Positions 33,457 to 36,852 are shown, counted from the first letter of the stretch. The stretch is DNA of 64,000 nt from an uncultured Holophagales bacterium (GCA_963741305.1 CAVUHL010000003.1:4403973-4467972); one strand, 5' to 3'. Program-made: numbers and translations. Notes: generated from the letters alone by a model not told the origin.

Positions 33457-36400
33457 CTATCGCGTGGGCCTCGCGCTCAGCACGCTATCCCGCCAGCGAC
33501 GCACGCTCATCACGTCGAAGCGCTCCCCCTCGAAGACGATCTGCTTCACGGGTTTCTTGCCGTTGTCGCTGGCGCGCGTCAACCAGTCGCGGATCTCCAT
33601 CCAGCGGACTTCGCCGTCGGAGTTGCGGATCACCAACAGCACGGGGAATGCCTGGTCCATCCAGTAGCGGGCGTGGCGCTCCTTCTTGATCGTGAAGATC
33701 TCTTGACCATCACTTGTCCGCTTGCGTAGGTAGCCCTCACCCGACTTCAGCTGCAGATACAACCGCTGGCCGGTCGCCTCACCAGCATCCGACTTGAATT
33801 CGATCTCCATGTCGATGCCGTGGTCGCTCACGTTGAATTCGCGACTGATCTGCCCAGCCAGCGCAACGGTGGAGATGACATCGCCGACGAGCGCACGCTC
33901 CTTGCTCTCGCTGTCTAGCACGATCGCGGACTGCTCTTGGAGATCATGCACGCGTTGCTTCATCTCCGGGCTGGCAAACAGCTCCTCCAGCTGGTCCCAG
34001 AGAGGAATACGCCTCTCGCAATTCACACAAAGGATGCCCTGCTTACCCTCATCCAGCCTCCTCATCGCCACTTCCCTATTGCCTACAGGTGTGCCGCAAT
34101 TCGGGCAGACATGATGCCTCAGTCGTACTACGTCTACGGCATTCTGGAGCAGATGCTCGTGAACATACTTGCTGAAGATGATCTTCTCCTCCAGCGGAAT
34201 CGTGGGATCGAAGTAGACCTCCAACTCGCCCGCGCCTTCCGCCCGACGGGCCAGCTTCACGCCCAACTGCTTACCGGTGAGCGTTTTGAAGTCGGCGGCG
34301 TAACGCCAGAGTTCGTCCTGTTGGAAAGGTTTAGTGTGATGCAGCCGCACCACGAGCGTAGCGTAGACGTCGTCGAGGAAACCGCTAAACCGGTAGCTCA
34401 CCAGCACCGCCGGATGCCCCACCAACTCCGGGCGTTCGCGCCGGTAATAGCTCGGAAAGACCAGCAATGCACCTTCGCCAGTGTGTTCGCGCAGACAGAG
34501 CCCGCGCTCCACCAGTGTCTGGTGCATGGCCAGTAGGACGAACCGCTCCTCGTCGTCTTTAAGGCGTGCCATGGAAGAGTGGTACGTAAGGTCGCCGCTT
34601 AAGACTCGTTCTTCCGGCAGACAACCTCGTTCGTGTTTATCCTCGCGCATCGTCTGGATCACAGCTTGGGCGTAGGCATTGATGCGTTCCGGCTGCAGTA
34701 GCACCCAGCTGCCGAACTTCAGCTCCCATACCACACCGGGGCCGGCCAGCAGGCTCACCACTGCCTTCAGCTCTTCATCGGTGAATCGCGCACCTTCGCC
34801 GGACAATCGCAGCTGCAGCGTGTCCCGTAGCTCATTGAAGCGCATCAGCGCTCGGCCTGAGTCCTTAAGGTGGATGATCTCCTCCTTGAGCCGCTTGAAG
34901 AGCAGCGGCGAGGAGCGCCACGGAATATCCTCCCACCGGATGCCGTCGAGAATGGCTTGCTTGAGTTCCTCGCAACCGAGGCTGGTCTTGGCGCTGGTTT
35001 CCAGTAGTTGCAGGTAGCCGCGCTCATTTCTGAAAGCTTCGATCTGAGTGCGGCTGACGCGTAGGCCGCCCGCATCCACGCGCCCAGCAACCAGCAGCTT
35101 GGAGAACGCCTTGCGCGAGGCACGGGTGAGATCACGGTCCCACTGGCCAAGCGTCTCGAAGAGATCTTCCTTCTGGCCGTCGAAGACTAGCAACGCCAGC
35201 GCGGTTTCATCCATGTAAAGCTGGTGGATGAGCCGCTGGTCTGCTTGCCCACCGAAATCCCAGAGCCAGATTTCTCGCTCGATGCCGTCGCCTGCAGCCA
35301 CGGGTAGTTTCCACTGCGTCGCCCATGCGCCGACCGTTGAGTCGCTGGGCTGCCATTCTTCGCCCGCCAGAACCTTGGAAAGCCCCGTCTTACCCGCGCC
35401 GCTCTCGCCAACGAGGAGGACTTTGGCATTCGTGTATTGGACCTGAGCAGGCGCCAATGAAAAGGTGGGTGCGGTGGCTCTAGGTGTTCGCGCCTCAGCG
35501 AAAACCTCCGCCAGATTCCACACACGGACACTGCCGATTCGATCGCCGGAAAAGGCGCGGAGTTGGTCGACACTCCATGCCACTTGCTTGACGCTGTCCG
35601 TGTGGCCTTCAAACACGCGCAAACAGCGCCCCGTCTCTATATCCCATAACCTTACTGTCTTGTCTCTAGAACCGGATAGGGCATGGCGATAATCGGCGCT
35701 CCACGCCACACTCAAGACGCCTTGAGTATGGCCTTCGAGCACGCGCAGGCAGCGTCTCGTTGTCACATCCCACAGTCTCACGGTGTTATCAGCAGAGCCC
35801 GAGAGAGCGATACCTCCATCGGCCCTCCACACTACGCTCAAGACATCGCCGCTGTGGCCTTCGAACACGCGCAAGCAGCGTCCCGTTGTCACGTCCCAAA
35901 GTCGCAAGGTGTTATCAGCAGAGCCCGAGAGAGCGTAGCCTTGATCGGCACTCCACGTTAAGCTACGCACCCCCGCAGAGTGGCCTTCAAACTCGCCTAG
36001 GCAGTCCCCCGTCTGCAAGTCCCAAAGCCGCAACATATTATCATTGGATCCGGATAAGGCTTGTAATTTACTCGGGCTCCACGCCAACGTCAAGATGGTG
36101 CCCATGTGACCCTTGAGGATCTGTAGGCAGCGCCCCGACTCCACGTCCCATAGGCGCACGGTTCGGTCTTCTGAACCGGATAGTGCGAAACGTTGATCGG
36201 TGCTCCACGTCAAGCTCCTGACCGGGCGCATGTGGTGATCGAACACGCGCAAACAACGCCCTATTTCCAAATCCCATAGTCGAACTGTATGGTCGTGGGC
36301 ACCAGTGAGCGCATATTTTCCATCCGGATTGAACGCATAGGAACTAATCCCGCCCAGATAGCGAAGCTTAATTTCCTTTTCCTGAAACCGCTCGTCTATT

Positions 36401-36837
36401 ACCAGTGCTGTCAGCGCCGGTCGGCATGCTTCGAGGAGTTTCGCATACTCCTGCTCACCGCCCCAGGGCAACCAGTTGATGTAGGAGGATTGTGCCCGTG
36501 AGTCCTGAATAGGGGCCTTATCGAGTCGCAGGGAAATAAAACGACGCTCCTTGTTCAGTGGGTCGCGGAATCGGAACGTCCCGGCTTCCAACTGTGTCCA
36601 TTCGGACCCTAACGCATTCGCCGACATGCAGAGCACGAGCACGCGGGATTGCTCCAGCCCTTCCTCGATCTTCTTAGCTCGCTGAGCTTTCGTCGTGAGT
36701 AGACTGATCTCCCACTCGTCAAACAACACGCGCAACCCATCCGACCGCAGCCGCTCCGCAATTCCGCGAGCAACCTCCCTATCCTTCGAGCTATGGCTGA
36801 GAAAGACATCAAACTTGAAGTCAGTTGTCGGCGGCAT
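33457..36837 (-). CDS. Multidomain TIR / WD40 propeller / Roc-COR GTPase / Zn-ribbon / PD-(D/E)xK-like (DUF4365-like) protein; candidate NLR/ROCO-like defence protein
   Basis: Domain order, N to C: TIR (aa ~7-135, FDVFLSHSSKD...); seven WD40 blades (aa ~158-445, each ending (V/L)RLWD); Ras-like GTPase (G1 GESGAGKT 475-482, G3 DFGGQ 526-530, G5 SAK 615-617); COR-like region; Cys4 ribbon (CPNC...CVNC, aa 911-940); C-terminal domain with D1009-x-E1011-x-E1013-x-K1015 (IDMEIEFK) nuclease-like motif. RBS GGAGAA. The gene's GC (~55-60%) is well below its neighbours (~68-70%). Confidence 0.85.
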   Translation of the reverse strand: MPPTTDFKFDVFLSHSSKDREVARGIAERLRSDGLRVLFDEWEISLLTTKAQRAKKIEEGLEQSRVLVLCMSANALGSEWTQLEAGTFRFRDPLNKERRFISLRLDKAPIQDSRAQSSYINWLPWGGEQEYAKLLEACRPALTALVIDERFQEKEIKLRYLGGISSYAFNPDGKYALTGAHDHTVRLWDLEIGRCLRVFDHHMRPVRSLTWSTDQRFALSGSEDRTVRLWDVESGRCLQILKGHMGTILTLAWSPSKLQALSGSNDNMLRLWDLQTGDCLGEFEGHSAGVRSLTWSADQGYALSGSADNTLRLWDVTTGRCLRVFEGHSGDVLSVVWRADGGIALSGSADNTVRLWDVTTRRCLRVLEGHTQGVLSVAWSADYRHALSGSRDKTVRLWDIETGRCLRVFEGHTDSVKQVAWSVDQLRAFSGDRIGSVRVWNLAEVFAEARTPRATAPTFSLAPAQVQYTNAKVLLVGESGAGKTGLSKVLAGEEWQPSDSTVGAWATQWKLPVAAGDGIEREIWLWDFGGQADQRLIHQLYMDETALALLVFDGQKEDLFETLGQWDRDLTRASRKAFSKLLVAGRVDAGGLRVSRTQIEAFRNERGYLQLLETSAKTSLGCEELKQAILDGIRWEDIPWRSSPLLFKRLKEEIIHLKDSGRALMRFNELRDTLQLRLSGEGARFTDEELKAVVSLLAGPGVVWELKFGSWVLLQPERINAYAQAVIQTMREDKHERGCLPEERVLSGDLTYHSSMARLKDDEERFVLLAMHQTLVERGLCLREHTGEGALLVFPSYYRRERPELVGHPAVLVSYRFSGFLDDVYATLVVRLHHTKPFQQDELWRYAADFKTLTGKQLGVKLARRAEGAGELEVYFDPTIPLEEKIIFSKYVHEHLLQNAVDVVRLRHHVCPNCGTPVGNREVAMRRLDEGKQGILCVNCERRIPLWDQLEELFASPEMKQRVHDLQEQSAIVLDSESKERALVGDVISTVALAGQISREFNVSDHGIDMEIEFKSDAGEATGQRLYLQLKSGEGYLRKRTSDGQEIFTIKKERHARYWMDQAFPVLLVIRNSDGEVRWMEIRDWLTRASDNGKKPVKQIVFEGERFDVMSVRRWRDSVLSARPTR

Positions 36838-36852
36838 TCGATTCTCCGGCGG

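Follow-up and report, generated by a model that had tools for sequence, protein, structure and literature searches.

For about 15 years bacterial Roco proteins have taken the place of LRRK2, the Parkinson's kinase, in structural work, and in the literature searched we found no paper that assigns a biological role to one of them, nor any that ties a prokaryotic Roco protein to phage defence. The closest described relatives of the gene analysed here are the AP-GTPase systems of Kaur, Burroughs, Iyer and Aravind, in which AP-GTPase+COR proteins with variable effectors were predicted to be counter-invader systems (Kaur et al., 2021, eLife; PMC8195603, Figure 6D and source data). Their archetype is LRR–Roc–COR–effector. 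About 14 members of the present family are tabulated in those source data as ‘TIR+BetaPropeller+AP-GTPase’, an architecture string without the COR, the zinc ribbon or the nuclease; some of the 14 are named ‘DUF4365 domain-containing protein’ by NCBI, and LRR+AP-GTPase+COR+REase fusions also appear in the source data (PMC8195603). That prediction was purely computational and left the family unnamed, and we found no experimental paper on any member in the literature searched. The family is therefore not wholly undescribed, and the initial annotation of this locus as a candidate undescribed protein is too strong, although Kaur and colleagues left the COR, zinc ribbon and nuclease unannotated.

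Three further groups of proteins invite comparison. STAND defence proteins (Avs, bNACHT, TIR-STAND) and the fungal NWD/HET-E receptors combine an effector, which may be a TIR, with an NTPase switch and a repeat sensor, and the present protein does the same. In SPARDA, the DREN nuclease, with catalytic residues D41, Q60 and K62, is an inactive monomer alone and becomes active on assembly into a D2 tetramer (PMC12205087). In Thoeris, the TIR protein ThsB works with a separate ThsA-type partner.

Results

The window, a stretch of 64,000 nucleotides from an uncultured Holophagales bacterium, carries on its minus strand a complete open reading frame (33457..36837) of 1126 codons plus stop, with an ATG start and, 5 nt before it, a Shine-Dalgarno-like GGAGA (36843..36847, minus strand) that can be read directly in the sequence. 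The identical protein, P0001, is found on an 8.38-Mb contig. Its domain order is TIR–WD40(7)–Roc–COR–zinc ribbon–DUF4365, and all features given below lie on the minus strand. Every domain call in the initial annotation held on a single polypeptide: Pfam searches matched TIR_2, WD40, Roc/Ras and DUF4365, and the COR call, for which Pfam gave no match, was borne out by the predicted structure.

The TIR domain (aa 8–135, 36433..36816), which had been placed through about residue 135, matches TIR_2 over aa 11–133 (E 7.5e-22), and the PDB entries closest to it are bacterial NADase TIRs, namely 7uxr and AbTIR (7uwg/8g83). A putative catalytic glutamate, E84 in the motif W80-x-x-x-E84, aligns to the Glu of WTxYE in bacterial NADase TIRs. 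Among 56 aligned sequences, taking at each column those with a residue there, conservation is 47/48 for D19, 43/48 for W80 and 40/47 for E84. In common with Thoeris ThsB and AbTIR, it is a TIR_2 domain with a conserved catalytic Glu, and PADLOC ThsB models match it at domain level (E 1e-10); the PADLOC TIR-NLR match is confined to aa 11–84 of the TIR. Unlike ThsB, however, this TIR shares one polypeptide with a sensor and a switch of its own, and a ThsA-type partner (SIR2, SLOG or Macro) was found neither among the Pfam-scanned neighbours in the window nor at the other loci examined. The fusion makes an NADase effector working in cis the probable role of the TIR, and it may also have a signalling role. 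Oligomerisation is reported to be required for TIR activation (PMC10899771).

The WD40 propeller, a putative ligand sensor (aa 148–441, 35515..36396; seven Pfam repeats, E 1e-69), consists of seven blades of exactly 42 residues, which give the DNA a 126-nt tandem period. The blades end, as had been noted from the sequence, in a (V/L)RLWD-like motif (VRLWD, VRLWD, LRLWD, LRLWD, VRLWD, VRLWD and VRVWN). This is the most divergent domain of the protein, with a mean identity of 55% against 87% for Roc and Roc-COR and 78% for DUF4365. Blade positions 15, 16, 18, 34 and 36 are hypervariable; the pairs (16,18) and (34,36) flank the conserved V17 and D35, and 12–17 different residues occur at each. 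Estimates of dN/dS are 0.5–1.2 at the hypervariable positions against 0.15–0.21 at scaffold positions of the propeller, so that the hypervariable sites lie near 1 and not robustly above it, and their high dN is in part circular because the sites were chosen for varying. Synonymous divergence of the WD40 region is saturated where that of Roc-COR is 0.2–0.3; the WD40 cassette has a recombination history of its own. In the fungal HET-E/NWD receptors, positively selected top-face residues form the pairs (7,9) and (25,27) (PMC1805685). The same arrangement of paired hypervariable positions beside conserved residues is seen here, with the same 18-residue offset and register, and by analogy the variable positions probably lie on the top face of the propeller. 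The NACHT NTPase of the fungal proteins, by contrast, is absent (Pfam).

Next in order is a Roc (Ras-like) GTPase domain (aa 470–636, 34930..35430). Over aa 472–630 it matches Pfam Roc (PF08477, E 1e-15, 58.4 bits where the cut-off is 27) and Ras (E 2e-17, 63.6 bits), and NCBIfam small_GTP matches it as well; when the sequence of the G domain is taken by itself, Roc scores no higher than Ras/Rab. The G1 (GESGAGKT, 477–484), G3 (DFGGQ, 527–531, or WDFGGQ from 526) and G5 (TSAK, 614–617) motifs that had first suggested a Roc domain are joined by a variant G4, A-G-R-x-D (584–588, including D588), and all four are kept in 54–56 of 56 distant relatives. In the ROCO family, GTP binding and hydrolysis are coupled to dimerisation through COR; here the motifs, among them the P-loop, DxxGQ with its catalytic Gln531 and D588 of G4, are intact. 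Roc-COR is under strong purifying selection (dN/dS 0.06–0.19; Roc, 0.06–0.18).

The COR domain (aa 637–905, 34123..34929), initially seen as a COR-like helical region, has no Pfam or PDB sequence match and emerges from the predicted structure, in which COR-A comprises two winged-helix units and COR-B, after it, an alpha/beta module. All 18 significant Foldseek matches in the PDB are Roco proteins or LRRK2. A COR domain is thus predicted directly C-terminal of Roc, which places the protein among the ROCO proteins. LRR repeats N-terminal of Roc, typical of that class but not defining for it, gave no match, the repeats being the seven WD40 blades. Compared with the canonical Roco proteins (Chlorobium tepidum Roco, an LRR-Roc-COR protein; Methanosarcina barkeri Roco2; human LRRK1, LRRK2 and DAPK1), the present protein has a COR that is only 13–17% identical to theirs and invisible to Pfam COR models, A-G-R-x-D instead of NKxD at G4, WD40 repeats instead of LRR, ANK or ARM repeats, and, as its output, a nuclease rather than a kinase, plus an additional TIR.

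A Cys4 zinc ribbon follows (aa 906–945, 34003..34122), with its cysteines in the motifs CPNC (911–914) and CVNC (937–940) that had been noted from the sequence. C911, C914, C937 and C940 are kept in 54–55 of 56 distant relatives; beta-hairpins appear in the predicted models of this region, and matches to zinc-ribbon Pfam families are faint. A linker and most of a long helix (aa 946–990, 33868..34002) then lead into the nuclease core, the helix spanning about aa 957–993 in the AF2 model (m8cf35c999ac2, helix H58-94).

The C-terminal domain (aa 991–1126, 33460..33867), whose resemblance to DUF4365 had been recognised, matches PF14280 over aa 995–1117 (E 8e-23). The top 14 Foldseek matches of its model are without exception DREN-APAZ chains of SPARDA (9qcc at 1.7e-8, and others); Hjc, I-Ssp6803I and RecU come next. 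Judged from alignment and predicted fold, the domain is the DREN nuclease of SPARDA, a PD-(D/E)xK enzyme. Aligned to 9qbq, D1009...Q1029-x-K1031 corresponds to the DREN triad D41/Q60/K62; these residues are conserved in 45–53 of 56 distant relatives and are predicted to be catalytic. The D-x-E-x-E-x-K motif (IDMEIEFK) proposed in the initial annotation is mistaken, since K1015 is kept in only 29/56 relatives, and mutagenesis should be directed at D1009, Q1029 and K1031 rather than at K1015. The protein therefore has in common with SPARDA a C-terminal DREN/DUF4365 nuclease with a D...QxK triad and, probably, the principle of activation through induced oligomerisation. Recognition would differ, with a WD40 protein sensor and a GTPase switch in the place that guide RNA and target DNA have in SPARDA. 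An APAZ domain is absent, the PADLOC Aga_REase-PNTD match covering profile positions 26–119 of 429, the nuclease part, and no Argonaute partner was found among the scanned window neighbours or in 9 other neighbourhoods.

The initial annotation considered this combination of domains unusual, yet it is the prevailing architecture in a family that comprises at least 1,840 clusters at 50% identity. A close-relative scan of 185,579 species representatives confirmed at least 176 species (a lower bound), from more than 12 phyla and including cultured strains, that carry the module at 61–85% identity. Homologues in cultured strains include those of Acaryochloris marina MBIC11017, Magnetospirillum fulvum DSM 13234 and Bradyrhizobium sp. 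LTSP885. Most hosts are soil bacteria whose genomes are large and whose lifestyles are complex (Acidobacteriota, Planctomycetota, Verrucomicrobiota, Cyanobacteria and Polyangia). No homologues were found in viral contigs. In one relative (P0261) a TIR occupies the C-terminal slot in place of DREN, and others have an AbiEii/OLD-type AAA_21 ATPase, nSTAND1, AAA_35 or an integrase as fusion partner or neighbour.

Toxin-antitoxin or transposase genes lie within 6 kb in 6/9 sampled neighbourhoods, and no partner gene is conserved across the nine. In the window itself the neighbours encode AAA_28, DinB, small TM proteins, PepSY_TM and DUF3224, and no recognisable defence island is seen around the gene. 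Horizontal acquisition had been proposed from a gene GC of about 55–60% against flanks of about 68–70%. The gene is indeed poorer in GC, but the measured values are 0.589 and, for the rest of the window, 0.655; the signal is stronger in GC3 (0.70 against 0.82–0.92 in host genes), a foreign codon usage that supports acquisition. Across the family, gene GC regresses toward about 0.58–0.60 whatever the GC of the host. The gene has moved horizontally among more than 12 phyla and has no obligate partner gene.

Discussion

The protein resembles the AP-GTPase systems of Kaur and colleagues in its Roc/AP-GTPase and COR core, in N-terminal repeats that evolve rapidly and in a C-terminal effector that varies, REase and TIR being among the effectors: the WD40 propeller is its fastest-evolving part, and the C-terminal slot holds DREN or, in P0261, a TIR. 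It departs from their archetype in having WD40 repeats and a zinc ribbon before the C-terminal nuclease, and in an extra N-terminal TIR, which gives it two enzyme domains. The difference from STAND-type NLR-like proteins lies in the switch, a Ras-like Roc GTPase with COR rather than a NACHT, NB-ARC or AAA+ STAND ATPase (no NACHT, NB-ARC or STAND domain was matched in Pfam, NCBIfam or PADLOC), and in the layout, with the sensor N-terminal of the switch and one enzyme domain at each end.

We infer that the protein is rather probably a stand-alone, NLR-like innate-immune or abortive-infection receptor in which a Roc-COR GTPase switch replaces the STAND ATPase. An NLR/ROCO-type immune function, already suggested in the initial annotation, remains the best-supported reading of its putative role, because the putative top face of the WD40 propeller is hypervariable, catalytic residues are conserved in both enzyme domains, codon usage is foreign, the gene has spread across phyla, and toxin-antitoxin and transposase genes abound in its neighbourhoods. 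The resting protein would be autoinhibited. The top face of the propeller would bind an invader-derived ligand, which we would guess is most likely a phage protein, and binding would be relayed through a nucleotide-dependent conformational and dimerisation cycle of Roc-COR, as in CtRoco and LRRK2. This cycle could, we suppose, drive higher-order assembly that brings together the N-terminal TIR domains, in keeping with the formation of the active site of TIR NADases by oligomerisation, and the C-terminal DREN domains, as in the D2 tetramer of SPARDA. The predicted outcome is NAD+ depletion, possibly a cADPR-type signal, and collateral cleavage of DNA or RNA, which would kill or arrest the infected cell. 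More tentatively, and with the balance tipped slightly the other way, the family might form a distinct and widespread class of prokaryotic NLR-like receptors, in which ligand capture by WD40 and GTP-dependent oligomerisation fire a TIR NADase and a collateral DREN nuclease on the same polypeptide.

Swapping of effectors and partners among relatives, diversification of the WD40 domain and mobility count in favour of an immune role. Counting against it are a window without a recognisable defence island and the absence of a match to any whole-protein PADLOC model, the matches being at domain level to the TIR and the nuclease. The Roc-COR-DREN identity of 61–89% across phyla is also unusual for immune proteins and could reflect another constrained function.

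The family joins a Roc-COR switch to two enzymes with simple predicted read-outs, NAD+ loss and nucleic-acid cleavage, and the putative specificity-determining positions of its sensor can be read from the sequence, which makes it a tractable system for asking how the nucleotide cycle of Roc-COR controls an output domain. It would represent a GTPase-switched counterpart of Avs/NLR proteins that is missing from PADLOC v2 despite its wide distribution. Should the family prove to be such a class of receptors, a physiological function would be known for the first time for a bacterial Roco protein, and the ROCO/LRRK2 lineage might be supposed to have begun in pathogen sensing. In brown algae, an immune-receptor role has been proposed for ROCO genes (PMC11378527), and together with the WD40 pattern held in common with the fungal HET-E NLRs this would tie ROCO proteins to immunity across domains of life.

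The likeness to HET-E also raises the possibility, which we consider improbable, of a receptor for allorecognition, kin discrimination or programmed cell death, whose WD40 face would recognise polymorphic proteins of conspecifics or competitors, or delivered toxins, and trigger self-killing by TIR and DREN. The hypervariability pattern is that of allorecognition NLRs (PMC1805685), the hosts are of the kind described above, Kaur and colleagues link such systems to multicellular habits (PMC8195603), and no homologue was found in viral contigs. Experiments, however, tie both effector types to defence against phages or plasmids (SPARDA, Thoeris, SPARTA), a setting of toxin-antitoxin and transposase genes is what anti-MGE islands typically show, and bacterial cytoplasms do not normally mix, so that an intracellular receptor would have no evident route to conspecific proteins.

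The polarity that we assume, with WD40 as sensor, could instead be reversed: the zinc ribbon and DUF4365 would bind nucleic acid and, like Mrr, read foreign or modified DNA, leaving the TIR as sole effector and WD40 as a platform for oligomerisation or an adaptor. Canonical NLR and Avs proteins do carry the effector at the N-terminus, where the TIR lies here, and the sensor at the C-terminus; zinc ribbons and PD-(D/E)xK folds bind nucleic acids; and the TIR of P0261 shows that the C-terminal slot is not tied to one activity. We nevertheless regard this arrangement as unlikely. Conservation of the DREN triad argues for catalysis and not binding alone, DUF4365 is conserved (dN/dS 0.08–0.29) while the diversifying surface is the WD40 top face, Roco/AP-GTPase proteins have N-terminal repeats and a C-terminal effector (PMC8195603), and a TIR suits an effector slot better than a sensor slot.

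Least probable by some way is a non-immune regulatory ROCO GTPase, for instance in stress or developmental signalling, with TIR and DUF4365 as protein or nucleic-acid interaction modules and the atypical GC incidental; the unusual conservation of Roc-COR-DREN, the housekeeping appearance of the window neighbourhood and the lack of a physiological role for bacterial Roco proteins in the literature searched would fit it, but the distribution is patchy (at least 176 relatives among the species representatives), codon usage is foreign, hypervariability marks the sensor surface, two cell-toxic enzyme types have kept their catalytic residues, disrupted or split copies occur (as at L004), and relatives are fused or adjacent to defence-type ATPases.

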